A DNA stretch of 30,325 bases from a virus: UHGV virus genome UHGV-0061407. One strand, given 5' to 3'. The stretch's first letter is position 1; each line of letters begins with the position of its first letter. The notes under the pieces are model-generated. The model worked only from the letters and a program-made list of their open reading frames with translations. It was not told where the DNA came from and did no database searches. This document shows, piece after piece, positions 4,904-26,521 of this stretch. The translations under genes and the position numbers were made by a program.

Positions 4904-5321
4904 TCACTTTCACCTTCGTCCTTGCCGCTGGCGTCAGACCGAATTCAACCAGGTAACTTTTAAAACGGCGGTCGGCATCGGCCAACATCGAAACGGCCGG
5001 GTTAGCTTTGATAAGAAAACCACCCTCGGTCTGGACGGTATAGGTTCTTCCCTCTACTGCGATGGTGTCGCGCAACTGAAGAATATCAGCGTAAATATCG
5101 CATAGCCGTTCAAGGGCTAAGGTGTCGGCAACCGTTAAAACCCCCATCCCGTCAAGGAGAACAGTCAACCTTCCCCAGGCAACCTTTCCCCAGTCGGTCA
5201 GGTGCGCCGGCGGGCTTGGAATTTCTCGCGCCGGAGTCGGTTCTTTATCGTTGAGTTTACGTTTGCCCGGGTTGCCTGAGACCACTTTGAGGTGGGTCGG
5301 TTTCGGGCGTCGTCCTGCCAT
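4857..5321 (-). CDS. terS: Terminase small subunit (P27-like family)
   Basis: 154 aa ORF directly upstream of terL on the same strand; composition and size typical of P27-family small terminase. Confidence 0.75.
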   Translation of the reverse strand: MAGRRPKPTHLKVVSGNPGKRKLNDKEPTPAREIPSPPAHLTDWGKVAWGRLTVLLDGMGVLTVADTLALERLCDIYADILQLRDTIAVEGRTYTVQTEGGFLIKANPAVSMLADADRRFKSYLVEFGLTPAARTKVKVNGEDPEEDTLDKFFG

Positions 5322-5438
5322 CGGAACCTCCCGGAAAAAAACTTTTCATTTCGCGGTTGTGCACAAAAAGGATGGGCGGCGGTCATTTCGGGTCAGACTT
5401 CTGAACTTTTGACCCGCCCCTCCCCTATGGAATTGACG

Positions 5439-5780
5439 TCATCTGAACCAGTGAGAATTTGGATCAAGCGGAATACCGTTTTCATCGCAGCCGATAACGG
5501 TGCCGCGCTTCTCCATTCGCTGCTTCGTTGAGTCATGGTGCTGCTTACACAGCCCTTGCCAGTTCTTCCGGCTCCAGAAAAGCTTTTGCGCTTTCGCTAT
5601 TGCCTTGCTGTCACCAGAACGCAGAGCCTCTTTCAGTTTATGCGGGATGATGTGGTCAACCACCGTGGCGGCTGTCACCCTGCCTTGCTCGTGGCACATG
5701 ACGCATAAGGGGTGCGCACGAAGGAATAGAAGACGCTCACGGTCCCATTTGCTGCCATATATGCGCGGTTCTTTGTTCAT
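5439..5780 (-). CDS. HNH endonuclease (packaging-associated)
   Basis: 113 aa with Cys/His-rich HNH-like motifs (CVMCHEQGR...VDHIIPH...LCKQHHDSTKQ); position upstream of terS as in HK97-like cos phages. Confidence 0.8.
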   Translation of the reverse strand: MNKEPRIYGSKWDRERLLFLRAHPLCVMCHEQGRVTAATVVDHIIPHKLKEALRSGDSKAIAKAQKLFWSRKNWQGLCKQHHDSTKQRMEKRGTVIGCDENGIPLDPNSHWFR

Positions 5781-6657: not shown

Positions 6658-6828
6658 ATGTCTATGCTCAAAGACAAGATACGTACACTCAGGCCTGTAA
6701 AAAGCACCTGTCCTCACTGCTCTCGCCAGTCAACACATAGCCTGTCGAGAATTAAAAACGATATAACATTGATCTGCCCATACTGCGGAAATATTTTCCT
6801 CCCCTCAGAAAGTAAACCTGTTAAGTAA
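6658..6828 (+). CDS. Small zinc-ribbon protein (CxxC...CxxC), moron-like
   Basis: 56 aa from ATG 6658 with GAGGA RBS 9 nt upstream (track ORF 6601..6828 starts at an upstream GTG); CPHC and CPYC pairs; only plus-strand gene in a minus-strand block; hairpin actgaagc/gcttcagt downstream (6844-6877). Confidence 0.45.
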   Translation: MSMLKDKIRTLRPVKSTCPHCSRQSTHSLSRIKNDITLICPYCGNIFLPSESKPVK

Positions 6829-7042
6829 CTGATCGAATACTTTACTGAAGCTGATGTTCACTCTTAGGCTTCAGTAATCGAAACGTTGACATGCTTCTTC
6901 TCCTGCTTCTGGCAATAAAAAAGGCCGCCATTGGCGACCTGGGTTCAAATTATGTGTGTCAGGGCATATGACACGAGTAACCGCAGTAATAGCCACCGTT
7001 GGATTGCGGGTTGACTTTCTGCATATTCTCTGCAACCTACAT

Positions 7043-7237
7043 TTAAGTATAGATCGAACCAGCAGTCCCGATTATCGCAGCAAGCAGAAAGAAGGTGACG
7101 GCAGTTCTACGCATTTGCACGCCATAAAATGACAGAGCCAACCCGACGAAAGCAACAATTAAAACTGTCCACATATCCAGTAAGAGGAAGAGATATCCCT
7201 CGAAAGCACTGTCAATCAGTACGTCCACATCGCGCAT
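7043..7237 (-). CDS. Hypothetical small membrane protein
   Basis: 64 aa, two hydrophobic segments; poor RBS spacing, so weak. Confidence 0.3.
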   Translation of the reverse strand: MRDVDVLIDSAFEGYLFLLLDMWTVLIVAFVGLALSFYGVQMRRTAVTFFLLAAIIGTAGSIYT

Positions 7238-7406
7238 TCCTTTTAATAGATAAACTCCGCTGAAATACTATCACGATAGCGTTAGCAGACTATCTGCTAA
7301 TCATCAAGCATCGACTGACTTATTTTCGGTGGATTTCTTTTCGCAAGTTGTGTTAGCAATCAGCATCAGGGCGAGCCACCGCGCGGCATGCCCACATACA
7401 GGCTTC

Positions 7407-7646
7407 CTACATTTTGGTGCGAGCGATTGCCAGACAGCGCAAAGCTTCATCAATCTCCCGAGCCTGCTCAGCACTTAACATTGCCGGGCCATTACGGACA
7501 GCCAACAATTCACCTCGCTCGGTATCAAGCAAACTACATAAGTGGCGGCTGACGCCTTTGAGGCGGTTCATGCGCTCAATCTCGCCCGCGGTTAATGTGC
7601 GGTAGCCTTTTACAGTGCTGCCGTCCTGCGGTTTTGCTTCACTCAT
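7407..7646 (-). CDS. Hypothetical protein downstream of lysis cassette
   Basis: 79 aa ORF; stop/start overlap with o-spanin (7643-7646). Confidence 0.45.
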   Translation of the reverse strand: MSEAKPQDGSTVKGYRTLTAGEIERMNRLKGVSRHLCSLLDTERGELLAVRNGPAMLSAEQAREIDEALRCLAIARTKM

Positions 7647-7873
7647 TTCGTAGCCTTTTCGGTTGGTTGCGGGCAGTTAGCCTGCACTGATTTGTTGTGC
7701 GCCAGAATGTCGCGCTTGGTCTGCTTATCTAGCACGTCAATATCGTGGTCAGTCAGGTAGATAATCCGCACCCAGTTGCAGGCGGTATCAACCACCACCG
7801 GGGTGGGTAAATCTTTCGCGCAGCTCGCGATCAACATCGTCATCGCCCATACGCTTAACGTCTTCCTGTACAT
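7643..7873 (-). CDS. Outer-membrane spanin (Rz1-like lipoprotein), overlapping frame
   Basis: From internal Met (MYRKTLSVWAMTMLIASC...) signal peptide with lipobox I-A-S-C; Cys near C-terminus; begins inside the i-spanin gene in a different frame, the classic overlapped spanin architecture. Confidence 0.55.
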   Translation of the reverse strand: MYRKTLSVWAMTMLIASCAKDLPTPVVVDTACNWVRIIYLTDHDIDVLDKQTKRDILAHNKSVQANCPQPTEKATK

Positions 7874-8063
7874 CGCTGGCCCCTTTCGTTGCATCAGCCC
7901 GGCGTTCTGCCGCGGCGACGGTAGCAGCGGCGTTTTCTTCAGTGCGCTGCTGCTCGGCTTTGGCTTCCGCCTTGCTGGTCCCGCGCGCATGGCCTAACCC
8001 AAACGCGCCAGCGATTAAGCCAAGCAGAACGACTACCAGCCCGCTGATAAATTCAAGGCTCAT
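7788..8063 (-). CDS. Inner-membrane spanin (Rz-like)
   Basis: 91 aa; N-terminal TM segment (FISGLVVVLLGLIAGAFGL) followed by charged Ala/Glu/Arg-rich periplasmic region; overlaps o-spanin start. Confidence 0.5.
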   Translation of the reverse strand: MSLEFISGLVVVLLGLIAGAFGLGHARGTSKAEAKAEQQRTEENAAATVAAAERRADATKGASDVQEDVKRMGDDDVDRELRERFTHPGGG

Positions 8064-8404
8064 TGCGCCTCCTGCTGCTCATCGGCTATTTCTTTCAGCT
8101 TTGGCTGTCTGACGTATTGAGAGAGGATGGCGAGCACCACCAGGGCCGGGCTAATCATTGCCACAATGTTTGCAGGCAGAATATCTTTGATATCCGGCGG
8201 CAGCATCGCCCAGGCATGAAGAGCTGCGTCCGGAAATGATTGGGCCCATACACCGACCAAAGCGCCGGCAGCACCCAGGCGGACAGACCATGTTTTAAGC
8301 AGCAACCGGGCATGACCAACAAACTCCAGCCGGGTATATTTGCGCACTAGCAACAGAACCAGCACGGCCACCAGCGCCAGCAGAGCGAAAATAATCATCT
8401 TCAT
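8060..8404 (-). CDS. Lysis-cassette membrane protein (two TM segments; holin/antiholin-like or accessory)
   Basis: 114 aa between endolysin and spanins; two hydrophobic helices; start overlaps endolysin stop. Confidence 0.5.
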   Translation of the reverse strand: MKMIIFALLALVAVLVLLLVRKYTRLEFVGHARLLLKTWSVRLGAAGALVGVWAQSFPDAALHAWAMLPPDIKDILPANIVAMISPALVVLAILSQYVRQPKLKEIADEQQEAQ

Positions 8405-9927: not shown

Positions 9928-10353
9928 TCACAGGTACTGGTCTAGTGGAAGTTGCAGAGCCTGGGCAATTTTCTTCAGCTGTTTCTCTTCTTCTTCCCCG
10001 ATGCCGTCGTTATCAGCTACATCAAGACACAGGCAAAGAACATCGACAGCGTCATCCGTCCCGGCAACATCAGCCAGTTCGCGCAGCGCCTGAGCGTTGG
10101 CTGAACGCGGTGATGCTTCATAGCGAGCGCGAATATTCGAACTCATCTGGGCAATTTCACCAGCAAATGGCGCGAATGCCGGGAGGGCCGAAATAGTCTT
10201 CTCCAGCACTGCAATCTCTTTTGCATCGCAGGTACCATCGGCGTATGCAATCGAGTACGCTCCCCAGACCGTGGCTTCTACGGCATCGCGGTTTTCCATT
10301 TTTTTCACTTCAACAACGGCTTTACGGGCTTTCTTTTTAAAAATACCAAACAT
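9928..10353 (-). CDS. TerB-like (tellurite-resistance TerB family) protein
   Basis: 141 aa; two repeats of the TerB-like pattern (AYADGTCDAKEIAVL and LDVADNDGIGEEEEKQLKKIAQAL) matching what I recall of TerB (a.aDG...eE...l..ia..l). Confidence 0.6.
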   Translation of the reverse strand: MFGIFKKKARKAVVEVKKMENRDAVEATVWGAYSIAYADGTCDAKEIAVLEKTISALPAFAPFAGEIAQMSSNIRARYEASPRSANAQALRELADVAGTDDAVDVLCLCLDVADNDGIGEEEEKQLKKIAQALQLPLDQYL

Positions 10354-10485
10354 AGTGACTTTCCTTTTAGCGGGTGAGCCAGCGCTCAGGAATGATCAGC
10401 CCACAGAGACAGTCACACTGACTATTCCCTATGGCTCACCCCTGAAAGGCTCTGTGGTTAAATAACGCCGAGCGTGGCGCAGATA

Positions 10486-10510
10486 CGAAAAAGGCCCGCG
10501 TATGCGAGCC
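10486..10510 (-). terminator. Terminator-like hairpin downstream of the methyltransferase gene
   Basis: 7-bp stem with one mismatch (10493-10499/10504-10510) followed on the minus strand by a T-run (complement of 10486-10491). Confidence 0.3.
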
Positions 10511-10796
10511 TGGTGGATCCGCTTACTGATACGGAGCGACCAACCTAAGTTGTCGTAGATTCAAATTGTGGCCCTGCTTTTAAGTCACTTTGCGGTCAGC
10601 TGGGACATGTAAGTTACGCATTGTGATCGGGATTCGCTTCAGACGCTGGCCCCGCAGCCATATAAGTGCCGGTTACGGTTCCGGCCAGGTCTCTTCCTCA
10701 ACAGGTTATTCTCCATACGGATTACCGTTTGTTGGTCGTTCCAGCGATCTCAATTTTCCGGTTACGTTTATCCGGCGGCTTACGCCCGGTTAAGCC

Positions 10797-11876
10797 CTAA
10801 GGTAAGGGATTTGGTTGTGGTGGCCGGTGCTCCAGCAAATTACGCATTTCACTGACCGTCTGTTCAAATCTCTCGGTTTCCAGTTCGACACCTAGCCCCC
10901 TTCGCCCGAGAAGAGCAGCCTGCTTGAGCGTTGAGCCTGATCCAAAAAAGAAATCAGCTACAACATCACCCGGGCGGCTACTCGCTGTGATTATCTGCTC
11001 CAGCATATCCGCAGGCTTTTCACATGGGTGTTTACCTGGATAAAACTGAACAGGCTTATGAGTCCAGACGTCGGTATATGGCACCGTGACTGATACGCTG
11101 AATGGTCGCCGTAAACGGTAATATTCCTGCTGGAGTTCAGAATATTTTCGGCTTAACGATTGCCAGGTGGCGACAAGCTGGTGGTGAGGTTTTCCCAGTT
11201 CGTTGCGCGAGTGCTTATCCATGGCGATTTTTTGAAACAAAGCCTGCAACTTTAAATAATCGGCTTCGTTCGGTAGCTGCCACTGACTAAGGCCAAACCA
11301 GTGGGAAACCATATTTTTCTTACCTGTGGCTTCTGCAATCTGAGCCGACGTCACGCCAAGAGATTCCCGTGCATCACGGAAGTAAGAAATTAAAGGCGTC
11401 ATGACGTGTTGCTTTAACTCATTACACTTTGCGGCATATCCATCGTCTTTGGGCCTGTATGGCCCCTGATAATGGTCGGCAAAAATGATACGCTCAGTGG
11501 CAGGGAAATAAGCGCGTAAGCTCTCCTTATTGCAGCCGTTCCATCGCCCTGATGGCTTAGCCCAGATGATATGGTTGAGCAGGTTAAACCGCTCTCTCAC
11601 CAACAGCTCAATATCCGCTGCCAGGCGGTGCCCACAGAACAGATACATGCTGCCGGCAGGTTTTAACACTCGCCAGAACTGTGCCAGACAGCTATCCAGC
11701 CAACGTAAATAGTCTTCGTCCCCCTTCCATTGGTTATCCCAGCCGTTTGGCTTCACCTTAAAATAAGGCGGATCGGTAACAATAAGATCAATGGAGTTAT
11801 CGGGTAGCGATGGGAGGTATTGCAGGCAATCAGCATTGATTAAATCAATACTGGATATTTTTACAGTATTTTTCAT
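10797..11876 (-). CDS. Orphan DNA methyltransferase, beta-class amino-MTase (N6-adenine or N4-cytosine)
   Basis: 359 aa; motif IV DPPY (LIVTDPPYF) near N-terminus and AdoMet motif I (DFFFGSGST) near C-terminus, the order typical of beta-class MTases; no adjacent restriction endonuclease ORF. Confidence 0.85.
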   Translation of the reverse strand: MKNTVKISSIDLINADCLQYLPSLPDNSIDLIVTDPPYFKVKPNGWDNQWKGDEDYLRWLDSCLAQFWRVLKPAGSMYLFCGHRLAADIELLVRERFNLLNHIIWAKPSGRWNGCNKESLRAYFPATERIIFADHYQGPYRPKDDGYAAKCNELKQHVMTPLISYFRDARESLGVTSAQIAEATGKKNMVSHWFGLSQWQLPNEADYLKLQALFQKIAMDKHSRNELGKPHHQLVATWQSLSRKYSELQQEYYRLRRPFSVSVTVPYTDVWTHKPVQFYPGKHPCEKPADMLEQIITASSRPGDVVADFFFGSGSTLKQAALLGRRGLGVELETERFEQTVSEMRNLLEHRPPQPNPLP

Positions 11877-12025
11877 AGATCAGTAAGCGTAACTCTGATA
11901 GGCTCACTTTGCTTTTGCGCTAAAGCAGTGGGCCGTGGTTAGCTTGTGACCTGAAAGCATGAGCTGATGGCTGGCCGGGTGCTACAACACCCACCAGCCG
12001 CCCATTTTCACAGCAAAAGCCCCCA

Positions 12026-12217
12026 TTACTGGAGGCGCTTATAACATCCGAACTGATAATCAGATAACCCCGCCATTACCAGCTGCGTAAGTATGAACTG
12101 GCAGCGTTCGCGGCTCAGGTGAGTATTCTGAGCAATCTCCCAAGCCGTAGCCGGTTTGTTACTTAACTCATCAAAAACAGCCTTGGCTGTTTCCGTCATA
12201 TCTTGCTGATTTAGCAT
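12026..12217 (-). CDS. Hypothetical small protein (possible winged-helix)
   Basis: 63 aa from internal ATG with GAGG RBS (track ORF 12026..12277 begins upstream of this); first gene after the tR'-like terminator. Confidence 0.4.
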   Translation of the reverse strand: MLNQQDMTETAKAVFDELSNKPATAWEIAQNTHLSRERCQFILTQLVMAGLSDYQFGCYKRLQ

Positions 12218-12320
12218 GTCTTTTACCTCAAATAAGTTGCGTGACATACAGATAACTCTGGTGACGGTATCCAGCAAGAAGTAATTGAAAGAGAAGAAGA
12301 TTTTATCGATTTTAGCCCAT

Positions 12321-12345
12321 AAAAAAACCCGCTCGCTGGCGGGTT
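12321..12345 (-). terminator. tR'-like intrinsic terminator immediately downstream of the Q-dependent promoter
   Basis: Minus-strand hairpin cccgc-cagcga-gcggg (extended by A-U pairs) followed by U7 (plus-strand A7 at 12321-12327). Confidence 0.55.
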
Positions 12346-12370
12346 AATCAACGTTGAACATACAAAGCCC

Positions 12371-12411
12371 ATCGTTATAAATAAAATTACACAAAAGCGG
12401 CAACTTTGCAA
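12371..12411 (-). promoter_or_regulatory. pR'-like late promoter with sigma-dependent pause element (qut-like region)
   Basis: Minus strand: -35 TTGCAA (12406-12411), 16-nt spacer, -10 TAATTT (12384-12389), then AACGATGGG (12368-12376), which matches the pause-inducing AACGATGGG motif I recall from lambda pR'; located within 60 nt of the Q stop codon. Confidence 0.5.
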
Positions 12412-12427
12412 GTAACGTGTCGCTAAA

Positions 12428-13276
12428 TTATGCGATATTTATCAAATCAGACACCTTTGTCACACGTTTAAGCTGTGAGTCGGTATAACTCTCTTCCTCA
12501 AAGCATTTTGTAACCAGACTTTCATAGAAAGGTTTCCAGCTATATCGCCAGGTACGTTCTGGCAGACCAGGCAGCTCAGAGAGCATGCCCCTGTATGCAT
12601 TCGAAGACTTAGGACGACTGTAACCGCGGCCTTCACAACGTTTACATATTTTGTAGACAGGCACTCCCTGCAGCTCTGACTCTTTACGGTCCAGGGTTTT
12701 TCCCGTACCGCCACACTGACATCGCTTGCTGATTTTCCCGGTGCCGCCGCATTTGAAGCAGAGAACATGGTCAACCTCTTCCACCTGACGTTTTACTTCA
12801 AAATCCGAAGGTGACTGCCTGAGGTCTTTTGCCCATTGCGGTAATCTCATTGTGTAGTGGCTTTTTTCCACCATTGAGGTTTTTTTTATGAAGCCTGAAC
12901 CAGAACACTTCCGGCAATCTACGCTGTCAGCTGCAGACGAGGCATAGTCGTTATAAGCGAACCGAGCTATTATCAGCATACACAGCGGGAACTTCTTCCC
13001 TGCTGCTTTTCTTATCGAACGAGGCGCTTTTGATTTTGCATATTCAGCCAACCAACTGACGGATGCCTTTCTGTCATGTTCGCTGATTCCAGCTTTACCC
13101 AAAAACATTGACAGGCCTATTCCTGCCTCTGCCTGTGTCATCCCCAGAGCCGCCATTACATCTGTCACAGTAAGTTGCTCGCTGGCGGTTGCACGACCGC
13201 TATCGGAAATATGCATTCCTTTGGGCGCGAAAAATTTGGGAATTGATTCAATATTCATGCTCAGTACTCCATACAC
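12428..13276 (-). CDS. Q: Late-gene antiterminator Q (lambda-Q family)
   Basis: 282 aa; segments read as clearly related to lambda Q as I recall it: GRATASEQLTVTDVMAALGM; ARFAYNDYASSAA; zinc-finger-like CRKCSGSG and CKRCEGRGYSRP; C-terminal PERTWRYSWKPFYESLVTKCFEEES. Confidence 0.85.
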   Translation of the reverse strand: MYGVLSMNIESIPKFFAPKGMHISDSGRATASEQLTVTDVMAALGMTQAEAGIGLSMFLGKAGISEHDRKASVSWLAEYAKSKAPRSIRKAAGKKFPLCMLIIARFAYNDYASSAADSVDCRKCSGSGFIKKTSMVEKSHYTMRLPQWAKDLRQSPSDFEVKRQVEEVDHVLCFKCGGTGKISKRCQCGGTGKTLDRKESELQGVPVYKICKRCEGRGYSRPKSSNAYRGMLSELPGLPERTWRYSWKPFYESLVTKCFEEESYTDSQLKRVTKVSDLINIA

Positions 13277-14332
13277 TCAAGCTTTTACAATGACACCGAT
13301 ACCCATTACCCGGTCCAGAAAACGAGCCCACAGCTCTAACTGAGTGCCATATTTCTTTTCGAACTCTGATGTATTGGCGTGTAATTCATCGTGATGCACT
13401 CTGCACAGTGGTATCACGAAGAGATCATGGGCCTTGGTGCCAGTTCCCCCCAGACCATTCCCTATTATATGGTGTGGATCGTCTGATGGTTGCCTACAGC
13501 ATTCACATGGCTGAGTTTTAACCCAACGTGTGTAAACTTCGCAGGTCCAGCGCCGGCGCTTTGGGCGGCGCATAAATGATTCGGGGCTGTTCGAATCGAC
13601 ACCAAGCCTCAGAATGGGTTTACTTTCAATCTGAGGTTGCTCAATGAGTAAACTGGCGTCCGTCAGGTCTATGCCCTCGACAAGATCCTGAAGGATTTCA
13701 CCTGCAGCAAATGACGGGACAATATCGCTATCCTTATAAACGGACAGGAAAGGTTCCTCAGGCAGTCTTAAGGCCTGTTGCGCCATCGTCTCGGTTATTG
13801 CGTCAGCAATGCCGGATTTCACAGCCCACCAGCAGAGCTCCGCCATCGATAATTCGCGCTCCTTATTGTATCCAAGGCTGATCAACACCCTTTCAATCAC
13901 CCACTGAACCAGATTCTGATAAGCCAGCTCTGACAACATTTCGGTGGTCTGCTCACGTAATTCATTATCACAATGCCAGCAGACAACCATGGCGCCAGGC
14001 GGATGCCGCATAGTCACTAATTCATGGTGGTGATAGTGGGAATGCGGGTACTGGCACTCTCTGACATGTCGTAGAAGCCAGGCCTCAAGAGCGTTAATTC
14101 CACCAGCTGCGTTAATAACCCTCTTATCCCTCATGAAAAAACGCAGAATGTCCATTTCTGCAAGGGGCTGACGTGCATCGGCGATCCGCCCAGTGGGCAG
14201 TGTTTTCATCTTCTCTGGCTGACGCTCTATCAGGACACGGCCGCCGGTAAAGAGAGACATCAATTCGCGGCCTGGTTTGAAAAGAACAACGCCCAGGCGC
14301 GGCACAATTTCCGGAGTAAGCAATGCTCGCAC
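13277..14332 (-). CDS. DUF968-like prophage protein with C-terminal His/Cys-rich motif
   Basis: 351 aa; C-terminal HHIIGNGLGGTGTKAHDLFVIPLCRVHHDELH; size and position (adjacent to Q) resemble the YdfU-type DUF968 proteins of lambdoid prophages; family assignment from memory. Confidence 0.5.
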   Translation of the reverse strand: MRALLTPEIVPRLGVVLFKPGRELMSLFTGGRVLIERQPEKMKTLPTGRIADARQPLAEMDILRFFMRDKRVINAAGGINALEAWLLRHVRECQYPHSHYHHHELVTMRHPPGAMVVCWHCDNELREQTTEMLSELAYQNLVQWVIERVLISLGYNKERELSMAELCWWAVKSGIADAITETMAQQALRLPEEPFLSVYKDSDIVPSFAAGEILQDLVEGIDLTDASLLIEQPQIESKPILRLGVDSNSPESFMRRPKRRRWTCEVYTRWVKTQPCECCRQPSDDPHHIIGNGLGGTGTKAHDLFVIPLCRVHHDELHANTSEFEKKYGTQLELWARFLDRVMGIGVIVKA

Positions 14333-14340
14333 AATCCCCC

Positions 14341-14871
14341 CTAAACAGTCAGATCTTTAAGCTTCTGCACGGCTTTACCAACTTCAGCCATAGCATCTAC
14401 GAACTCGTCAAACTTCCTGCTGGCCATTCCATATGCCTGGAGAATCTCCAACTTCAAGGGATCGAGCTGTTTCTTAATTTCTGCACGATCCCCGGCTTTT
14501 TTCTCCGCTTCCTCTGCCGCTTTGATCAAGGCGTCAGCCTGTTTACGTAATGCTTCCGGAGTTACTTCGAGTTGTTTATTCATTTTGCATTCCATCGTCG
14601 GCTGAGGAGGTGTCATTACAGGCGCCACAGATTTGTGACCATATTTCGGGTGGTGCAAGGTAGTAGACCTTCCATCATCTATCACGCAGAGCATCCCGCT
14701 TTCCCGGATTATTTCGATCAGGGTCTCTTTTTCTTTGCGATTGAGCCCACTGTATGCCGCCACTTTGTGCGTCAGGTGGGTTAGCGTTGCGCCTTCTGGT
14801 TGCCTCTCTACAAAACGCTTTACCCTGGAAAGCACTGGTTGCAGGTGTGGCGGAGTCATTCTCATGTTCAC
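14341..14871 (-). CDS. Hypothetical protein (N-terminal winged-helix-like, C-terminal coiled-coil-like)
   Basis: 176 aa ORF tightly packed between KilA-N and DUF968-like genes. Confidence 0.5.
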   Translation of the reverse strand: MNMRMTPPHLQPVLSRVKRFVERQPEGATLTHLTHKVAAYSGLNRKEKETLIEIIRESGMLCVIDDGRSTTLHHPKYGHKSVAPVMTPPQPTMECKMNKQLEVTPEALRKQADALIKAAEEAEKKAGDRAEIKKQLDPLKLEILQAYGMASRKFDEFVDAMAEVGKAVQKLKDLTV

Positions 14872-14874
14872 CCC

Positions 14875-15717
14875 TTACTGCGTGACAACGCCAATGAGCT
14901 TTAAAAGCTCAGGAAATTTCGATTCGAAGAAGTGCGGTTGCGTCTCACGTGGATTTGCCGGGCTGGTGATGTTTTTACCGTACAGACAACCTTTTGCCGT
15001 AACAGACCAGAATCTTTTCACGCCATTGATACCCGTTCGGCTGCGGCGCTCCTTCTGCTCGACTATGCCGTGACCAGCCATAAGGTGATAAGCCTGGTTC
15101 GCGGTCATTCTGATGTTGTTAGCTTTAAGCAAAGCGCTAAGAGACAGCGTTGGTCTGCTGGAACCATCCTGCGCGCCAGCTGGTGCATCAATGGCATATG
15201 AAGGCATTAAATCAGGCAGCCCTGCTACCTGCTGAAGCTTCTGATATGCTCCGAGCTTTGACGAATTAGAGAGATTGAGCATTTTGGCTGCAGATTCCAG
15301 GAGGATTATGCCAGCCTGAATGCGATCGGTATTGACGGTTGCAGCCCCAGCAGTGTGGAGCGCGTCAAACGTTCTGATGACCTTCAGATTAAAAACAGCG
15401 CTGATCCACATCGCGTAGGCATACACCAACTCACGGCAAACATAGGTACCTTGCTCATTTCCGCCGCGGATGACACTTACAGGTTCTGAAATATCCGAGT
15501 TGCTATTTTGCAACTCGCCTATCAATTGCGCAGTTTGTTCGTTACGTAGCCAGAATGCAGGCTTATGGCGGTCAAGGGAGCCGGAAGCACGATGGAGATC
15601 GTTTAGGCAATAACGACCAAGGACATCACGACGAACAGAAATACCATCAATAACAAAAAAAGTGTGATTATTGGATGCAGCAGCACCCATGACGTGGTTA
15701 GTCATAGCTTTCTCCAT
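14875..15717 (-). CDS. KilA-N domain protein (antirepressor-like)
   Basis: 280 aa; N-terminal region FFVIDGISVRRDVLGRYCLNDLHRASG...KPAFWLRNEQT...GTYVCRELVYAYAMWISAVFNLKVIRTFDAL fits the KilA-N pattern. Confidence 0.65.
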   Translation of the reverse strand: MEKAMTNHVMGAAASNNHTFFVIDGISVRRDVLGRYCLNDLHRASGSLDRHKPAFWLRNEQTAQLIGELQNSNSDISEPVSVIRGGNEQGTYVCRELVYAYAMWISAVFNLKVIRTFDALHTAGAATVNTDRIQAGIILLESAAKMLNLSNSSKLGAYQKLQQVAGLPDLMPSYAIDAPAGAQDGSSRPTLSLSALLKANNIRMTANQAYHLMAGHGIVEQKERRSRTGINGVKRFWSVTAKGCLYGKNITSPANPRETQPHFFESKFPELLKLIGVVTQ

Positions 15718-15793
15718 ACATTTTTATGTGACGAAGGGCCTGCACGCCCGTTTCGTTTGCACTCTTTGAGATTACTGGCAAGTTGCATAGACT

Positions 15794-16192
15794 TCAACCT
15801 ACCACTGAACAAACATCCAGCGTTTTTTTATACGCCGATATGGTGATTTCTACCCGCCCGCCTTTAACATTCTCACCCCACTCTATAGCCATGCGCTTTA
15901 CCTGGTTGTCGTCCTCCCAGATACCGGCATAAGTCAAAGCATCAAGAAGTGCCTTGTTGTAATTGTCCAGGTCACGCCGGCGATAGTCTGGCGGATAGAG
16001 AATAATTTCTACTGCTGCTGGCGCGGTAGATGGTTTTGGTATTGCACGCAGTTGCTCAATGATCGCTGACCGTACTGCATGTTTGAATTTACGGCCGGCT
16101 GCGCTGACAAGGTGTTTACCTTTTGCGGGCCCCTTATTTGGGGACCGCCAGTAGGTGTTCACGCTGGGCGGGAATGGAAGTAAAAATTTCAT
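15794..16192 (-). CDS. rusA: Holliday-junction resolvase RusA
   Basis: 132 aa; RusA-like motifs (PPSVNTYW, RRRDLDNYNKALLDALTYAGIWEDDNQV, KGGRVEITI). Confidence 0.85.
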   Translation of the reverse strand: MKFLLPFPPSVNTYWRSPNKGPAKGKHLVSAAGRKFKHAVRSAIIEQLRAIPKPSTAPAAVEIILYPPDYRRRDLDNYNKALLDALTYAGIWEDDNQVKRMAIEWGENVKGGRVEITISAYKKTLDVCSVVG

Positions 16193-16665
16193 TCTGCCTC
16201 CAGCACTATTTTCAACTCAAACGGAACATCTCCTCCGCAATAGCAGAGCGGGCCAAGGTCAGACATGAGGCTCCACAGGGTCATTGACGTATAGCCATTT
16301 TCGTCTGTTACCGGGGGCGAAAAGTCTCCGAAGATCGCCGGGTGCTGGATTCGATTCTGCTCGTGTTGTTTTTCCAAATGTCTGAGGGAAACTTCATTAA
16401 GTTTCACTTTTACGATGCTGTTGAGATTGACCGATATTTCTCTGGCCAACAGCGAAGGGGTGATACTGATACCGCGAGAAACCCCGCGGGTGATTGTGAT
16501 AACACCCTTTTTCTCCAACGCCTTAAGGTGTGTTGCTGCTGCATTGGGGGACCGGCACCCCAGCATGCCGGTCAGTTCGTAAGTTGTAGGCGGAAAACCA
16601 TGTTTACGCTGATATTCGATCAGGAGGTCAAGGACCTCCTGCTGCCTTAAGGTCAAGGAAGTCAT
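16189..16665 (-). CDS. LexA-type winged-helix DNA-binding domain protein lacking the S24 peptidase domain
   Basis: 158 aa from ATG 16665, which overlaps the C5-MTase stop (ATGA); N-terminus LTLRQQEVLDLLIEYQRKHGFPPTTYELTGMLGCRSPNAAATHLKALEKKGVITITRG resembles the LexA N-terminal DNA-binding domain; no Ser-Lys protease motifs. Confidence 0.55.
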   Translation of the reverse strand: MTSLTLRQQEVLDLLIEYQRKHGFPPTTYELTGMLGCRSPNAAATHLKALEKKGVITITRGVSRGISITPSLLAREISVNLNSIVKVKLNEVSLRHLEKQHEQNRIQHPAIFGDFSPPVTDENGYTSMTLWSLMSDLGPLCYCGGDVPFELKIVLEAE

Positions 16666-18749
16666 GCTGCCTGCTCCTCTCTGTTCACGCACATTTCGGG
16701 TAAGTTGGCGCGTACCAGCGCTTCGGCGAACGGTGGCGGAACGGCATTGCCACAGCGCGCGACCTGCTTATCTTTCGCGTACTTCACGCCGCGGTAATCC
16801 TGGTCAATGATGTACCACTCGGGGAAGCCCTGCGCCCGGTAAAGTTCGTGTGGCTGCAGCATGCGCATGCCGATATCAACGATGCGGTAAGTCACTCCGC
16901 CGATTTCCACCAGCCCGGTGCATTCCTCTCCGCAGTATTCCTGCAGGAACGCCAGCACCTGCTGCGCGCGCTCTTCGTCGTAGTCCTCGACCGCCAGAGT
17001 CGTTTTAACCTCCCCTACGTGCTGGCCGCCGGCAGTGATAGTCGGCATCGGCTCGTCAGTAGGCTGGCCGTCACGGCAAGTACCGCGGAGCTTGACCAGA
17101 TGAGACGTAACCATTGCGGCATCAGCCTTTGTCGTCATGGTTTGCAGTGGCTCGCTAACGTCACGTGGCCTGCTCTGCCCAGCGCAACCGCCGACACCAA
17201 CAACCTGAGCAGTAACCAGCGCATGATGATCGACAGTAGTAACTGAGTGAGTAGGTTCGTCCAGGTCAATACCGGTGCCCTGGTAGTTCCCGCCATAGTG
17301 TTTTGCCAGAAATGCCCCAACAACCGCATGTTTCCCGCCACCAGCCACAACGGTACCCAGTGGCTTATCCAGTCCTGGCACACGAGGTGCCTGGCCTGGC
17401 CGTTCCCCGTATCCCGTTTGAATGAGCGTCGGCACTACCAGCTGCGATTTACCGCCACCGCCCGCGGTGATTGTTGCGCTAGGCTCATCCGCACGGTGTC
17501 CGATGCTGGCGCCGAACTGCCGGGCGATAACCGGAGCGACGACACAGGCGCGTGATTCTTTCAGGATGGTGTGAGCGGGTTTATCTAGCGGGCGTGGTTT
17601 AGCCTGGTACTCGCTGCCGCCATTGCCAGCCAGGAACGGCGCCAGCTCTGCTTCAACAATACCCAGAGCGTGACCATTCCCGCCCGGGCGTTTTGCGGTA
17701 CCGGCCGTCACCGTCGGCAACGGATCGGTGACTTCCTGCCCGGTAGCGCCGGTTCGGAATTTTGTCAGATGAGGTACCGCAATTGCGTAGCCGTGGGTTT
17801 TCGTAATCGTCTGTAGCGGATCGTCCAGCGCCTGTCCCCGGAAACAGTCATATTTGCCACGTGTCGTTGTGTGATTGCACTTCACGATGAATGGCGAAGC
17901 ACTTTCGATAACAAAGCGCTGAATGCCGCGGGCAATCCGTTTTAGCGTATTCTCTGCCAGTGACTTTTTGCGACCGAAGATGCTCGGCGCGGGGATTGAC
18001 CAGTCTATGCATTCCGCAGCTGTACGCCACGGCTCCAGCTGGCCCGCCAGCACGGCGGCAGACTTCGGATCCCCGTGCGTGGCTTCCGGCCAGACTATCG
18101 ATTTCCCGTCCCGGCGCATCACCATGAAGAACCGCTTACGGATGGTCGGCGCGCCATAATCGCAGGCGCGCAGCTCGCGAAAATCGACGACATAACCCAG
18201 CCCGGCAATTAAGCGCTTGGCCTGCTCGCTATCCGGTGAAAACTCCAGAAACTCGCAACACTCCACCAGTGCAGGATGATCTGCTGGAATACCGGTGGTA
18301 AGCATCCCGACAAATGCATTGAAAGTTTCACCGATGCGTGCCGGATCCGGTCGCATTTCTGCCGCGAGTAACGGACCCCACGTTTTAAACTCTTCGACGT
18401 TTTCCAGCATCATGACTCGCGGGCCAACATCCAGCGCCCAACGAATGACGATCCATGCCAGCCCTCGAATAGCTTTCTCTACTGGTTTAGCACCTTTCGC
18501 TTTAGAAAAGTGACGACAGTCAGGCGAGAACCATGCCAGGCCGACAGGCTTGCCACTGGTAGCGGCTAATGGGGATACATCAAACACACTTTCGCAATAG
18601 TGAAGCGTGTCGGGATGGTTAGTGCGGTGCATAGCAACGGCGTTAACATCGTGGTTAATCGCGATATCAACGCTACGCCCTATCGCCAGCTCAATACCTG
18701 TACTGGCGCCACCGCCACCAGCAAAATTATCGACAATAATCTCACGCAT
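16662..18749 (-). CDS. DNA (cytosine-5)-methyltransferase, large, with eight internal repeat modules
   Basis: 695 aa; motif I FAGGGG, PC motif (FSPDCRHFSKAKG), ENV motif (MLENVEEF), C-terminal RCGNAVPPP; central 270 aa made of eight repeats with core D-x-P-x-x-T-[IVM]-T. Confidence 0.9.
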   Translation of the reverse strand: MREIIVDNFAGGGGASTGIELAIGRSVDIAINHDVNAVAMHRTNHPDTLHYCESVFDVSPLAATSGKPVGLAWFSPDCRHFSKAKGAKPVEKAIRGLAWIVIRWALDVGPRVMMLENVEEFKTWGPLLAAEMRPDPARIGETFNAFVGMLTTGIPADHPALVECCEFLEFSPDSEQAKRLIAGLGYVVDFRELRACDYGAPTIRKRFFMVMRRDGKSIVWPEATHGDPKSAAVLAGQLEPWRTAAECIDWSIPAPSIFGRKKSLAENTLKRIARGIQRFVIESASPFIVKCNHTTTRGKYDCFRGQALDDPLQTITKTHGYAIAVPHLTKFRTGATGQEVTDPLPTVTAGTAKRPGGNGHALGIVEAELAPFLAGNGGSEYQAKPRPLDKPAHTILKESRACVVAPVIARQFGASIGHRADEPSATITAGGGGKSQLVVPTLIQTGYGERPGQAPRVPGLDKPLGTVVAGGGKHAVVGAFLAKHYGGNYQGTGIDLDEPTHSVTTVDHHALVTAQVVGVGGCAGQSRPRDVSEPLQTMTTKADAAMVTSHLVKLRGTCRDGQPTDEPMPTITAGGQHVGEVKTTLAVEDYDEERAQQVLAFLQEYCGEECTGLVEIGGVTYRIVDIGMRMLQPHELYRAQGFPEWYIIDQDYRGVKYAKDKQVARCGNAVPPPFAEALVRANLPEMCVNREEQAA

Positions 18750-19695
18750 GAGCGGTCCCCCTCATGCTGCCGACCAGCCCACCAGCAACGGTGATGATTT
18801 CGCTGGTGGGCACGCGCTCCAGCCACAACTGGTTAATGTGGGCCTTCAGCTTGTTCTGCTGGGAGAACTCCAGATCCTCTGCGCCTTGTACCTGTCCAAA
18901 GACGAGTCCAACTTCCAGTGGCCAGATCCGGGATTCAGGCTCAGCCAATGATGCAACAGCATCGGGGATGATCACTTCAGGAGACTGAACTGGCGAAACT
19001 GGTGACAGGAATTTTCCTGCAGCAAACTCAGCCAGCACCATACTTGCGCGCCCTTTTGCTTCCAGCTCAACGCGATCGATATAGCTAAAATGTTCACCGC
19101 GCCAGGTCTTATCAAATACCGCAATGGCCCCGGCAAAGAATGCGCTGGTGGGCTTCTGCTTTTCGTCGGCCGGCACAAACCACGTTGGGAGATCGAATCC
19201 AATACGACCACGAATAAACATGATGTGATCGGCATATTCCGGCCACCATGTTTCACTTGTTGCTGACTTCACGAGGTAAATGTAACGACCACCCTTTTCA
19301 CGCTGCTCGGCGGTATAGTTCATAATATGAGTCATGCCAGTGATGGCTTGTTTTTCATGGTACTGCGAACGGCTGTACGGCGGATTAGCAAAGGCAGCTC
19401 CTCCGAGTTCTACCAAACGACCAGACCAGTCCTGCGTCAGCGCATTATCTTCAGCGGTATACCATGCCGGACATTTTGTATTGCTGTCGTCTGCAAACAG
19501 GTCCAGTACCAGCGGGCCAAACATAGCGTTAACGCCCCAGAACAGCAGATCTGGTGTCCGCCATTGATCGCCAACCTCTTTCAAATAATGCGCACTGCGC
19601 TGGCGCTGTTCCTCAAGTGCCAGGCAATAAGGGTTGATGGTTTTTGTCAAAGTTTGCTCTTCTGCGGTCATAGCTTCTTGTACTTCCTGACTCAT
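18742..19695 (-). CDS. Phage Dam-like N6-adenine DNA methyltransferase
   Basis: 317 aa; motif WRTPDLLFWGVNAMFGPLVLDLFADDSN followed by FANPPYS (NPPY catalytic motif) typical of phage Dam-family N6A MTases; 8-nt overlap with C5-MTase start. Confidence 0.75.
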   Translation of the reverse strand: MSQEVQEAMTAEEQTLTKTINPYCLALEEQRQRSAHYLKEVGDQWRTPDLLFWGVNAMFGPLVLDLFADDSNTKCPAWYTAEDNALTQDWSGRLVELGGAAFANPPYSRSQYHEKQAITGMTHIMNYTAEQREKGGRYIYLVKSATSETWWPEYADHIMFIRGRIGFDLPTWFVPADEKQKPTSAFFAGAIAVFDKTWRGEHFSYIDRVELEAKGRASMVLAEFAAGKFLSPVSPVQSPEVIIPDAVASLAEPESRIWPLEVGLVFGQVQGAEDLEFSQQNKLKAHINQLWLERVPTSEIITVAGGLVGSMRGTAHA

Positions 19696-19886
19696 AGTTT
19701 TCCCCTGCGCTGATCAGCATCAACAAGTGCTCTCAGTAACCAGTAACGGCGATCAAAGCTGAAAAGGTCATCTCTGAGGAGTGCGTATTTTCTGCGAAAA
19801 ATAACGTCGTGCTGCCACCAGTAACGCCAGTGATGCAAACGCACAAGGCGCCGGAGACTTATCAAAATCTTCTTCAATCGGAGCAC
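19692..19886 (-). CDS. Hypothetical small Arg/Trp-rich protein
   Basis: 64 aa ORF filling the gap between the PerC-like and Dam-like genes with overlaps at both ends; no motif. Confidence 0.25.
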   Translation of the reverse strand: MLRLKKILISLRRLVRLHHWRYWWQHDVIFRRKYALLRDDLFSFDRRYWLLRALVDADQRRGKL

Positions 19887-20332
19887 AAGTCACCTCCGCA
19901 GTAATTTCCTGCCAGATAGCATGACCCGGCGGAATCATTCATGTTTCTGGCGTTTCGAACAGAAGCATTCTTAAGACGCAGGTACCGCTCTCTTGCTTTA
20001 GCCGTACAGTTGCTGTCACAAAGTTGCTGCCATACCGTCGCCGCACGGCGGTAATAGCGTTTCTCTTCCAGCTTTTTGGCTGTCGCTTCAAGGGCAAGAA
20101 TCTCCCCCGAAAGCCCACCAGGCAGGTACTCTTCAATATCGATGGATCCCGCTACGAAGTAGATAAACCCACCAGTAACTTCAACGCTGGCAAGTTCCCC
20201 GTCGTAGTACAGGCGATGAACAGCGCTCTTCACTGTTACCGGTTTGGTTTCAGGAAATGCCGCAGTGATATCGCGCAGCATTTTGCCTGGATTCTTCTCA
20301 ATAAATTCAAAGATCGACTTGGCTATGTTCAT
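19874..20332 (-). CDS. Hypothetical protein, possibly PerC-family regulator-like
   Basis: 152 aa; segment RYYRRAATVWQQL resembles the RRAA..W signature I associate with PerC-like prophage regulators; weak. Confidence 0.35.
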   Translation of the reverse strand: MNIAKSIFEFIEKNPGKMLRDITAAFPETKPVTVKSAVHRLYYDGELASVEVTGGFIYFVAGSIDIEEYLPGGLSGEILALEATAKKLEEKRYYRRAATVWQQLCDSNCTAKARERYLRLKNASVRNARNMNDSAGSCYLAGNYCGGDLCSD

Positions 20333-21240
20333 CCCCGGAACCCCCGTGGAATAGTGGTTTGTACTGGACTAATTGAATTAACATCCCGCGGTCTGGTTTT
20401 GTCCCACAACTCCCTTGGCGGGCGGCCTTTGGCATCCCAACGGATAGCGCTTTGCAGATATCCCTCGAATTTTTTAGGGCCGAAAAGTGTCTCGGGTCGC
20501 ATGTACTGGTATTGCTCGTCGTTGCCATGCCAGTGCTCATGTTTGACGTCGATTACCAGTTTCAAGTCGCTAACGGTATGACCTTCGCGGAGGCGCGCGC
20601 GAATGTTCTCCAGTGAGGTCTTAGATTTCTGGTAACGGGAACCGCTGACCAGATTCAGGTGTGCCAGAACTTCGATCGCGTTATCGGTAATAACAACTTC
20701 AGGATCCGGCTTATCGTCGGGTTCCGCAGGAGCCCGACAAGAAGGTTTTTTAGATGACGGATCTAATGACGGATCTAATGACGGATCGCCTTCAACCATT
20801 GAGGGGTCCTCCCGCAATATTTGAGGGGGTACAGACCCATTATTTGAGGCATCAGAATTTGACCCCTCAAATTTTGAACCCTCAAATTCTGAGGCATCAA
20901 ATTTTGATTGTTCACGTGGCGTTGCGTAGAAGATTTTTGCTTCAGCTGCTGCACGTTCCAGCATGTCAACATTGAGTTTATAAACGTTCGAATTATTCTT
21001 TCCGCCCACGCGCCGTTCCTGCTTCTTCAGCCAGCCTTTAGCCTGAAGCTTTTTGATAGCGCTGCGGACAGTATTCTCGCTCTTGGCGCCGATCTGTCGC
21101 TGAATAGTGGTTACCGCTGGCCATGACACACCTTCGTCATTACTGAAATCTGCCAGGGGAGCCATGACCGCTATTTCTGAGATTATCAGCCCTTTGAAAG
21201 CGCATGCTTCCCATACGAGGCCGTGTAATTTACTGCTCAT
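20329..21240 (-). CDS. Replication initiator / replisome-organizer-like protein (N-terminal HTH, repetitive linker, conserved phage C-terminal domain)
   Basis: 303 aa; N-terminal HTH-like segment, repetitive linker (KFDASEFEGSKFEGS, PSLDPSLDPS) coinciding with DNA iterons, C-terminal domain of the kind found in phage replication proteins. Confidence 0.65.
   Translation of the reverse strand: MSSKLHGLVWEACAFKGLIISEIAVMAPLADFSNDEGVSWPAVTTIQRQIGAKSENTVRSAIKKLQAKGWLKKQERRVGGKNNSNVYKLNVDMLERAAAEAKIFYATPREQSKFDASEFEGSKFEGSNSDASNNGSVPPQILREDPSMVEGDPSLDPSLDPSSKKPSCRAPAEPDDKPDPEVVITDNAIEVLAHLNLVSGSRYQKSKTSLENIRARLREGHTVSDLKLVIDVKHEHWHGNDEQYQYMRPETLFGPKKFEGYLQSAIRWDAKGRPPRELWDKTRPRDVNSISPVQTTIPRGFRG
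20754..20905. repeat. Iteron cluster inside the replication gene (candidate origin)
   Basis: Tandem 12-bp repeat atgacggatcta x2.8 (20754-20788); repeated atttgagg / cctcaaatt motifs in both orientations and direct 10-bp repeat tgaggcatca (20845-20854, 20890-20899). Confidence 0.5.
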
Positions 21241-22669: not shown

Positions 22670-22870
22670 TTATTGTTTGGAATAGATATCTGGTCGGAGA
22701 TCAAACTTCGTGATCGCACCGGATGTGCTTTTTTCCAGTTTTTTTGCCAGATCAAATCCGGCTTTTTTGTAGCCGTTAAAAACTAAACGCAGATAACCGG
22801 GTGTAGAGCCAACGTTTGCAGCTAAATTGCTTTGTTGCTCTTTAGTTAATGAATCCCAGAACTCTTTCAT
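22670..22870 (-). CDS. cro: Cro-like repressor (HTH)
   Basis: 66 aa from ATG 22870 with AGGAGG RBS lying inside operator O1; divergent from cI; HTH-like segment QSNLAANVGSTPGYLRLVFNG. Confidence 0.65.
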   Translation of the reverse strand: MKEFWDSLTKEQQSNLAANVGSTPGYLRLVFNGYKKAGFDLAKKLEKSTSGAITKFDLRPDIYSKQ

Positions 22871-22873
22871 ATA

Positions 22874-22940
22874 TGTACCTCCTGTGTACATATTACACGA
22901 AAGAAATGAACCTTCAAGGCACTTGTACCTAGGAGGTACA
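22874..22940. promoter_or_regulatory. Right operator region: two 17-bp operators tgtacc-N5-(g/t)gtaca between cro and cI
   Basis: O1 22874-22890 tgtacctcctgtgtaca; O2 22924-22940 tgtacctaggaggtaca (perfect palindromic half-sites). Confidence 0.5.
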
Positions 22941-22957: not shown

Positions 22958-23632
22958 ATGAAAACAATCCAGGAAATCAGGCGGTTAAACGCCAGAAAAT
23001 TGCGTGATGGTGTTGGCGGTAATATTTACTTCGCCAATATGATTGATCGCGAGCCGACTCAAACCAGCCGGTTCATGGGAGATGGCGCCACTAAAAACAT
23101 CGGCGATGCAATGGCAAGGCACATTGAAAAGTGTTTTGACTTACCTACTGGGTGGTTAGATCAGGAACATCAAACCACTAATGTTGCTAAAACGCCCGAT
23201 GTCTCTGATACATATAGAAATATCACCATGGTTCCGGTTATATCCTGGGTACAAGCAGGAGCATGGACCGAAGTTGGCTATGCTGAGGTTGATTTGAATA
23301 GCACTGAAAACTATCCATGCCCTGTTCCTTGTGGGCCGATGACTTATATTCTTCGTGTTATTGGCGACTCAATGATCGACGAATATCGGCCCGGTGATAT
23401 GATTTTTGTTGATCCCGAAGTTCCAGCAGTGCATGGAGATGATGTGATCGCCTTAATGCACGATTCTGGTGAGACTACATTTAAACGGTTGATTGAAGAT
23501 GCAGGACAACGCTATCTAAAAGCACTTAACTCAAACTGGCCAGAACCTTACATCAAAATCAATGGTAATTGCTCTATCATTGGTACCGTAATTTTTTCCG
23601 GTAAACCAAGACGATACCGAACGAAAACATAA
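22958..23632 (+). CDS. cI: CI-type prophage repressor with C-terminal S24 (LexA-like) autopeptidase domain
   Basis: 224 aa; N-terminal HTH region, C-terminal S24 motifs (VIGDSM serine, FKRL lysine); divergent from cro. Confidence 0.85.
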   Translation: MKTIQEIRRLNARKLRDGVGGNIYFANMIDREPTQTSRFMGDGATKNIGDAMARHIEKCFDLPTGWLDQEHQTTNVAKTPDVSDTYRNITMVPVISWVQAGAWTEVGYAEVDLNSTENYPCPVPCGPMTYILRVIGDSMIDEYRPGDMIFVDPEVPAVHGDDVIALMHDSGETTFKRLIEDAGQRYLKALNSNWPEPYIKINGNCSIIGTVIFSGKPRRYRTKT

Positions 23633-26392: not shown

Positions 26393-26521
26393 TTGCTCTC
26401 CATTAAATCCCCGGCGCCGCGGGGATTTATTAAAGCGTAATCCTGCAATTAATCGCCACATGGCGAGGGATTCCTACACCCAAAAAACAGCGCTGTGCAG
26501 GCGTAAAGTATGGAGAAAAAA

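Follow-up and report, generated by a model that had tools for sequence, protein, structure and literature searches.

What are three DNA methyltransferases (MTases) of different classes doing in one prophage, with no restriction enzyme beside any of them? The UHGV virus genome UHGV-0061407, a stretch of 30,325 nucleotides that we refer to as the window, is a lambdoid temperate prophage of the Klebsiella/Raoultella group (Klebsiella phage Kp4866-6 is 96.5% identical to a 9.5-kb slice of it). On its minus strand it encodes a beta-class N6-adenine/N4-cytosine enzyme that we call MTase 1 (10797-11876, 359 amino acids), a large C5-cytosine MTase (16662-18749, 695 amino acids) and a Dam-like N6-adenine MTase (18742-19695, 317 amino acids). 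An earlier note on this DNA had placed three MTase genes of these classes at exactly these coordinates. Each of the three open reading frames (ORFs) scores above the curated Pfam cut-off, the class assignments are borne out by matches to PF01555, PF00145 and PF05869 together with the motifs of each protein, and a check for inactive enzymes found the catalytic and S-adenosylmethionine-binding motifs kept in all three, motifs IV and VIII of the C5 enzyme being in variant forms.

Sets of orphan MTases in lambdoid prophages, non-specific ones included, have already been documented (PMC5778455, PMC6602927), and several of them in a single lambdoid prophage are routine. The new point is the C5 MTase, whose large size comes from eight recognition-like modules, the only unusual feature here. 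Neither this precedent, nor the module array, nor the relationship of MTase 1 to the M.EcoGII group described below had figured in the earlier note. The best overall explanation, to which we assign a probability of about 0.65, is that the three are orphan lytic-phase MTases that modify the phage's own DNA, with the C5 enzyme doing so through alternative recognition modules.

The C5 methyltransferase and its module array

The C5 MTase matches PF00145 (DNA_methylase) in three stretches (E 1.1e-18, 68.2 bits against a cut-off of 22). Its catalytic core consists of residues 1-284 and 613-695, for which AlphaFold2 gave a predicted local distance difference test score (pLDDT) of 85-97, and the core model matches the C5 MTase structures 3g7u, DNMT1 and M.HhaI. 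The best match in both sequence and fold is PDB 3g7u, a putative DNA modification MTase from the E. coli prophage CP-933R; it is likewise prophage-encoded, but has 376 residues, an ordinary single variable region and ~20% identity to the window enzyme. Across 113 diverse relatives, FAGGGG of motif I (DNFAGGGGAS, residues 7-16), the catalytic C78 of motif IV, E116-N117-V118 of motif VI and both R204 and R206 of motif VIII are invariant, and the late motifs IX and X are present as RMLQPHE..QGFP and CGNAVPPP. Motif IV takes the form SPDC.HFS, in which an Asp is inserted between the Pro and the catalytic Cys (of 110 representatives that showed the motif IV pattern, 107 have PDC and three PTC), and motif VIII is GAPTIRKR (GAPT.R.R), with Thr in place of the Gln of QxRxR.

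Between motifs VIII and IX lies an array of eight units (residues 285-580, window 17010-17897, minus strand). The units are ~35 residues long (32-48), each with a short hydrophobic stretch and a Gly-rich loop followed by D-[EK]-P-x-x-T-[IV]-T. The pattern P..[TS][IVML][TLVI] occurs eight times in the protein against 0.19 expected, and no more than three times in any of 5000 shuffles. Ordinary C5 MTases have one P-x-x-T-[IV]-T element, located in the target-recognition domain just before motif IX. An example of the single element is DKPSPTITT, carried by a monospecific C5 enzyme (PMC11954522). Because the eight units of the window enzyme are only 11-36% identical to each other in pairwise comparison, they appear to be ancient and distinct, and not the outcome of recent duplication.

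An exhaustive search, with family size counted as representatives of 50%-identity clusters, returned 8196 members of this C5 family at E<=1e-3 and 2526 at E<=1e-30, with lengths of 470-1113 amino acids. They occur in Proteobacteria, Paenibacillus, Brevibacillus and other hosts as well as in many temperate phages, and chromosomes of K. michiganensis encode proteins 99% identical to the window enzyme. When a hidden Markov model (HMM) of the unit was applied to the family, the number of units in a protein ranged from 1 to 12 and was most often seven. Clustering of 1663 units gave at least 26 recurrent module types, each with its own signature, such as GYGERPGQAPRV..L.KPLGTVVAGG for type A, AKHYGGNYTGPG..LDEP.HTVTTVDHH for type C and HLVKLRGTCKDGQPVTEPMPTITAGG.H for type E. 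In this nomenclature the window enzyme reads J-B-P-D-A-C-F-E, with A at residues 443-478 and F at residues 513-545. Between proteins of Klebsiella, Burkholderia and Paenibacillus whose overall identity is only ~50%, a single module type is 50-86% conserved.

Comparison of 261 relatives yielded 225 distinct architectures. The inner modules are ordered as A-B-C-D-E, A-C-D-E, B-x-A-D-C-E, B-x-D-C-A-E or B-P-D-C-E (where x is an untyped unit) in different relatives, and both orders were seen for the type pairs A/D (35:20), A/B (13:56), C/D (13:50) and A/O (12:12). Alignments of close relatives (77-99% identity) contain clean insertions and deletions of whole modules, and between proteins that are 77-89% identical we observed one-for-one swaps at the same position, with F in place of O. 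Single-module differences set apart natural variants such as the 660-residue P0097, P0375, with an F-to-O swap, and P0338, which is without A. The Klebsiella clade has a helical segment in place of the usual last module.

Temperate phages of Bacillus encode multispecific C5 MTases, in which one polypeptide contains several recognition domains of ~40-50 residues, each responsible for one target. The enzymes of this group (M.SPRI, M.Phi3TI, M.Rho11sI, M.H2I and M.SPBetaI, from the work of Trautner and colleagues) resemble the window enzyme in combining one C5 core with tandem short units (~35-50 residues) between motifs VIII and IX, in being encoded by orphan genes on temperate phages, and in that units are gained, lost and exchanged among relatives, as in the window family. 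The likeness reaches to the motif level, where SPR has SPTITT and DGEPAFTVNTIDRHG and the window family has DEPxxTVTTxDHH. The two differ in catalytic subfamily, with SPDC.HFS and GAPT.R.R in the window family and PCQ and QxRxR in the Bacillus phage enzymes, and in the number of units per protein, which reaches 12 in the former and is 3-4 in the latter. Unlike the Bacillus phage set, the window family is also very large and spread over several phyla. Reviews describe the multi-domain arrays of Bacillus temperate phages as an anti-restriction strategy (PMC12707154), and recent ones cite only Bacillus phages for it (PMC12707154, PMC8936443). Under the same mechanism, the modules of the window enzyme would act as alternatives in target recognition, only one of them docking on the single catalytic core at any time, and would give one enzyme several cytosine targets, as in the Bacillus phage MTases. 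Judging from this analysis, the chance that the modules are independent specificity units and the C5 enzyme multispecific falls a little short of even.

The two other methyltransferases and predicted lytic-phase expression

MTase 1 matches PF01555 (N6_N4_Mtase; E 1.8e-40, 139.7 bits) and the PADLOC model MTase_II PDLC03265 (4.8e-144), and the order of its motifs, from DPPY (residues 34-37) through the recognition region to FGSGS, is that of the beta class. The MTase of Stx2 phage 1720a-02 has 77% identity and 89% similarity to it over 348 residues and occupies the equivalent slot (Q, a small ORF, the MTase, then stx or lysis genes). That phage enzyme has been named as very similar to M.EcoGII, a non-specific adenine MTase (Murray et al. 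2018, PMC5778455) that is reported to be silent in the lysogen and toxic on expression, with a proposed anti-restriction role (PMC5778455). Based on its sequence, we assign MTase 1 to the M.EcoGII group of beta-class MTases, and its probable activity is adenine methylation that depends little or not at all on the surrounding sequence. This likeness rests on the 1720a-02 homolog and on the same slot between Q and the lysis genes. Both M.EcoGII and M.EcoGI, from lambdoid prophages of E. coli O104:H4, share with MTase 1 the beta motif order (DPPY, recognition region, FxGxG), a length of ~350 residues, orphan status and carriage by a lambdoid prophage; the difference is that the host of MTase 1 is Klebsiella. 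Of 5426 complete E. coli genomes, 2722 contain a homolog of MTase 1, and a single genome can have as many as eight copies.

The gene for MTase 1 lies in the late cargo slot past the Q antiterminator gene (12428-13276, minus strand; PF03589, E 1.5e-45), and the C5 and Dam-like genes in the nin region, a placement in which the gene order agrees with the earlier note. After Q comes a pR'-like promoter just upstream of a tR'-like intrinsic terminator (12326-12345, minus strand; AACCCGC-CAGCGA-GCGGGTT then T7, ~80 nt past the Q stop), followed by a small conserved ORF (12026-12277, minus strand; phrog_331, probable start ATG 12217) with a terminator-like hairpin at its end (12019-12036, minus strand), and then by MTase 1. 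A second terminator-like hairpin with a T-run (10492-10511, minus strand; eight pairs, six of them G-C) lies downstream of MTase 1. Because the gene stands behind the pR'/tR' signals and so should depend on Q antitermination, its layout indicates that expression should be late and restricted to lytic growth; in the lysogen it would await Q and stay silent.

The Dam-like MTase matches PF05869 (Dam; E 1.1e-42, 146 bits against a cut-off of 28.1) and NCBIfam TIGR01712 (phage_N6A_met; 187.1 bits against a cut-off of 97.05). It has an NPPY motif (ANPPYS), an MTase domain at approximately residues 21-228, and 69% identity to its uncharacterised Dam counterpart in the nin region of phage 1720a-02. 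With the Dam-type phage MTases of T1, HP1 and VT2-Sakai it shares a small core without a separate recognition domain, the (D/N)PPY motif and a site in the nin region; unlike them, it bears a C-terminal extension of ~65-90 residues. The VT2-Sakai enzyme (M.EcoVT2Dam) has been reported to be GATC-specific (PMC6602927). Two other candidate counterparts were rejected: the Hia5/Hin1523 non-specific adenine MTases, which are kin of the classical Dam/DpnM and do not belong to PF05869, and M.EcoGIX (SAY), which is plasmid-borne. The part of the extension at residues 253-315 (window 18751-18939, minus strand) matches phrog_16025. In Klebsiella phage 5 LV-2017 a counterpart with 43% identity to the extension stands as a free 85-residue ORF, located upstream of the C5 MTase; in Salmonella phage 118970_sal3 the extension is fused to Dam with the C5 gene absent. 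It may represent a mosaic recombination junction.

The stop of the Dam-like gene and the start of the C5 gene overlap by 8 nt (ATGCGTGA), confirming what had been noted earlier, and co-transcription of these overlapping, same-strand genes was judged right. The C5 stop in turn overlaps, in an ATGA, the start of a gene for a LexA-DNA-binding-domain protein (16189-16665, minus strand; PF01726, E 4.5e-20), whose ATG at 16665 is likelier than a GTG at 16692 on the basis of phage 1720a-02 homology and the sequence. The LexA-like protein thus appears to be translationally coupled to the C5 MTase. Because of the ATGCGTGA and ATGA overlaps, the Dam-like, C5 and LexA-like genes are taken as coupled within one operon, in which a single delayed-early transcript of the nin region would be the template for translation of the Dam-like and C5 MTases, the LexA-like protein and the Holliday-junction resolvase RusA (15794-16192, minus strand). 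All three MTases would then be made only in lytic growth and would modify the phage's own DNA, allowing progeny to escape restriction in the next host. We consider it highly probable that the three are orphan, lytic-cycle and self-protective enzymes.

Alternative explanations

A number of results count against the explanation that we favour. For the array (residues ~285-625), AlphaFold2 returned a pLDDT of 22-35 with a diverse alignment of 113 sequences, and the same low pLDDT when rerun with an alignment of 54 collinear architectures. The unit HMM gave no significant match to the recognition domains of M.SPRI, M.Rho11sI, M.H2I and M.SPBetaI in their GenBank sequences (E 0.3-0.7), and comparison of the unit profile with all PDB sequences produced a chance match only. 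The inserted Asp of motif IV and the Thr-for-Gln replacement of motif VIII depart from the standard motifs, both of them family-wide, the NCBIfam dcm model TIGR00675 scores 44.8 on the C5 MTase, below its cut-off of 100.65, and we know of no characterised member of the SPDC-type C5 family. In the 261 proteins compared, types E and N are always found behind A-D and neither end unit changes, and the array may in part be a structural scaffold. As for the other two enzymes, the Dam-like MTase is only 33% identical to VT2-Sakai orf32, which encodes the VT2 Dam reported as GATC-specific, and 23% of the residues of MTase 1, some of them in the recognition region, are not shared with its phage 1720a-02 homolog.

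The rival that survives best regards the array as one large DNA-binding or structural repeat domain that confers either a single, long or degenerate, specificity or near context-free cytosine methylation, in which case the C5 enzyme would be the cytosine counterpart of M.EcoGII. It draws on the fixed positions of the first (J/K), penultimate (E/N) and last (H/G) units, and because these hold their places the array looks like a constant frame with a variable interior and not a freely permutable series. The shortest C5 relatives still hold 1-3 units, so one functional recognition domain may need several of them; the units are without significant similarity to the Bacillus phage recognition domains; and MTase 1 of the same phage is probably non-specific, which would mean that such phages do use a non-specific strategy. 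However, neither the number nor the order of the inner units is fixed, and close relatives exchange single units one for one, which is ill-suited to a single cooperative fold. AlphaFold2 is usually confident on solenoid-type repeats, in contrast to the low scores obtained for this array, and the module types are as conserved across phyla as the catalytic core, suggesting that each type has a function of its own. We consider a single large domain unlikely.

The MTases could instead serve the phage life cycle or host epigenetics, by marking DNA for packaging or replication, timing expression or reprogramming transcription in the lysogen. Phage P1 requires Dam methylation at its pac sites and orphan MTases have been proposed as regulators of the viral cycle (PMC12707154), and the Dam-like and C5 genes of the window sit among nin-region regulators, namely a PerC-like activator (19874-20332, minus strand), the LexA-like protein and a KilA-N protein (14875-15717, minus strand). 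Yet the MTase genes behave as dispensable cargo, with the C5 gene missing in the close relatives 1720a-02 and 118970_sal3 and existing elsewhere as remnants or deletion fusions (mEp237 and phrog_29443, described below), and MTase 1 lies behind Q-dependent terminators. A fixed regulatory role is also a poorer fit to combinatorial variation of recognition modules than is an arms race with restriction systems of many kinds. The odds against a regulatory role as the explanation are, in our view, long.

Absence of a restriction partner

Among ORFs of at least 50 amino acids on both strands from 9.8 to 20.6 kb, searches with Pfam, PHROG and PADLOC identified no restriction endonuclease, and the antisense ORFs have no Pfam match, upholding the absence of an endonuclease gene beside any MTase that the earlier note had described. 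The nuclease-like proteins of the window are RusA, a DUF968/HNH-like nin-region protein (13277-14332, minus strand; PF06147, 5e-70; phrog_96 'HNH endonuclease') and a terminase-associated HNH protein, none of which adjoins an MTase. The DUF968/HNH protein is the sole endonuclease-like product encoded between the MTases and has no PADLOC match; its gene also adjoins Q in Salmonella phage 118970_sal3, which is without the C5 MTase. It is a conserved nin-region gene and no restriction partner. No endonuclease was found beside the relatives of these MTases in Stx2 phage 1720a-02, Salmonella phage 118970_sal3, Aeromonas phiARM81mr, Burkholderia BgManors32, and Ralstonia and Paenibacillus prophages. 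With intact motifs, no cognate endonuclease and the same genes endonuclease-free in related phages, the view of the three genes as orphan anti-restriction or epigenetic cargo is supported.

A cryptic restriction-modification or defence system (DISARM- or Druantia-like, for example), in which one MTase supplies the modification and the nuclease was overlooked, is scarcely credible. In its favour, PADLOC gives generic C5-core matches to the DruM and DrmMII models, and the DUF968/HNH protein and an unannotated 176-residue ORF (14341-14871, minus strand) share an operon with the MTases. Against it, these matches extend no further than the C5 core common to such enzymes and are outscored by plain type II MTase models; no helicase, DUF1998, DruA-E companion or further DISARM/Druantia component was found by PADLOC, and the neighbouring proteins have no match there; the antisense ORFs lack Pfam matches; the DUF968/HNH gene lies ~2.3 kb from the C5 MTase, with four genes in between, and 1.4 kb from MTase 1, with Q and the small ORF in between, and it keeps its place beside Q where a phage has no C5 MTase; and family members in five unrelated prophages have no adjoining endonuclease.

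Two neighbourhoods in other prophages were recorded separately. In BgManors32, inspection by eye alone picked out a 'YECK' motif resembling PD-(D/E)xK in the gene (4821-5690) that overlaps the C5 MTase at its end. In a Paenibacillus prophage (6812-8209, 10424-11212), the C5 MTase is directly followed by a 465-residue N6_N4 MTase, and a weak MmcB-like protein is encoded 3.6 kb downstream.

Variation in the C5 gene among phages

The C5 gene has a GC content of 0.56-0.59 against ~0.50 in its flanks, and the order Dam-C5-LexA-like-RusA of the window corresponds to Dam-LexA-like-RusA in phage 1720a-02. Its higher GC content, and its absence between Dam and the LexA-like gene in 1720a-02, give the C5 gene the look of a GC-rich cassette that was inserted between those two genes. 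In some lineages the cassette evidently decays, judging by E. coli phage mEp237, which retains just the last ~119 residues of the C5 MTase at 81% identity. Some phages also carry a deletion that fuses the C5 MTase and LexA-like genes, because phrog_29443 (273 positions) matches both residues 1-155 of the former and residues 39-167 of the latter.

An extra helical insertion of ~30 residues in the C5 catalytic domain (TTGIPADHPALVECCEFLEFSPDSEQAKRLIAGL; residues 151-181, window 18207-18299) marks the enterobacterial clade and is missing in betaproteobacterial and Firmicute relatives. Family members longer than 900 residues (P0126, P0184, P0192, P0248, P0257, P0220 and P0173) carry an intein with Hint and LAGLIDADG homing endonuclease domains. 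It is inserted exactly at motif IV (...SPD | C-FPAGT...VVHN | C(K/T)HFS), and therefore the catalytic cysteine is the +1 extein nucleophile. The window enzyme is without an intein, and its equivalent site is the codon of C78 (window 18516-18518). Fusions of Dam and C5 domains were sought among the long family members and were not found, the extra length there being due to inteins. Dmt of phage P1 is a possible analogue in which N6A and C5 enzymes are fused.

Other features of the window

Upstream of the Dam-like gene and the PerC-like activator are the genes for a replication protein (20329-21240, minus strand), a cro-like protein (22670-22891, minus strand) and cI (22958-23632, plus strand). 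In the late region, a TerB-like gene ('tellurite resistance', phrog_632; 9928-10353, minus strand) is a second cargo gene, located between the terminator that follows MTase 1 and the lysis genes. Beyond it come the lysis, HNH and terminase genes, of which that for the 113-residue HNH endonuclease (5439-5780) is just upstream of the terminase genes, in the usual layout for HNH-dependent cos packaging and unrelated to the MTases. A tRNA scan of the late region found none. The early-left operon encodes nucleotide-related proteins (26510-27049, 28983-30023 (+), 25565-26392 and 27242-28027), its products including a PF04447 dATP/dGTP pyrophosphohydrolase domain (E 1.5e-42), a DUF2303 protein and a ParB-HTH protein, along with a weak YfbR-like HD 5'-deoxynucleotidase match. 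DUF2303 is also found alongside the C5 MTase in Ralstonia prophages, and a link to manipulation of the nucleotide pool is possible.

Implications

The orphan MTase set matters chiefly for predicting how phage DNA and transduced DNA pass across Klebsiella restriction barriers. The wider proposal, which we put forward tentatively and at somewhat less than even odds, is that the SPDC-marked C5 enzymes form an apparently undescribed prophage family across Proteobacteria, Firmicutes and beyond, with arrays of up to ~12 modules drawn from dozens of types, each directed at a different cytosine target, which together would act as a plug-and-play shield against many restriction systems. If true, this would go beyond the 3-4 recognition domains of the Bacillus phage enzymes and amount to a natural code from module type to DNA motif. 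Were the modules independent, the family would be a large natural library pairing ~35-residue modules with DNA motifs, of use in predicting 5-methylcytosine methylomes, which PacBio covers poorly, and in engineering MTases with chosen sets of targets. Independent modules would also help to account for the ability of temperate phages to keep up with restriction systems of many kinds, and a mechanism that for 35 years has been known from Bacillus phages alone would then apply to thousands of prophages across many phyla.

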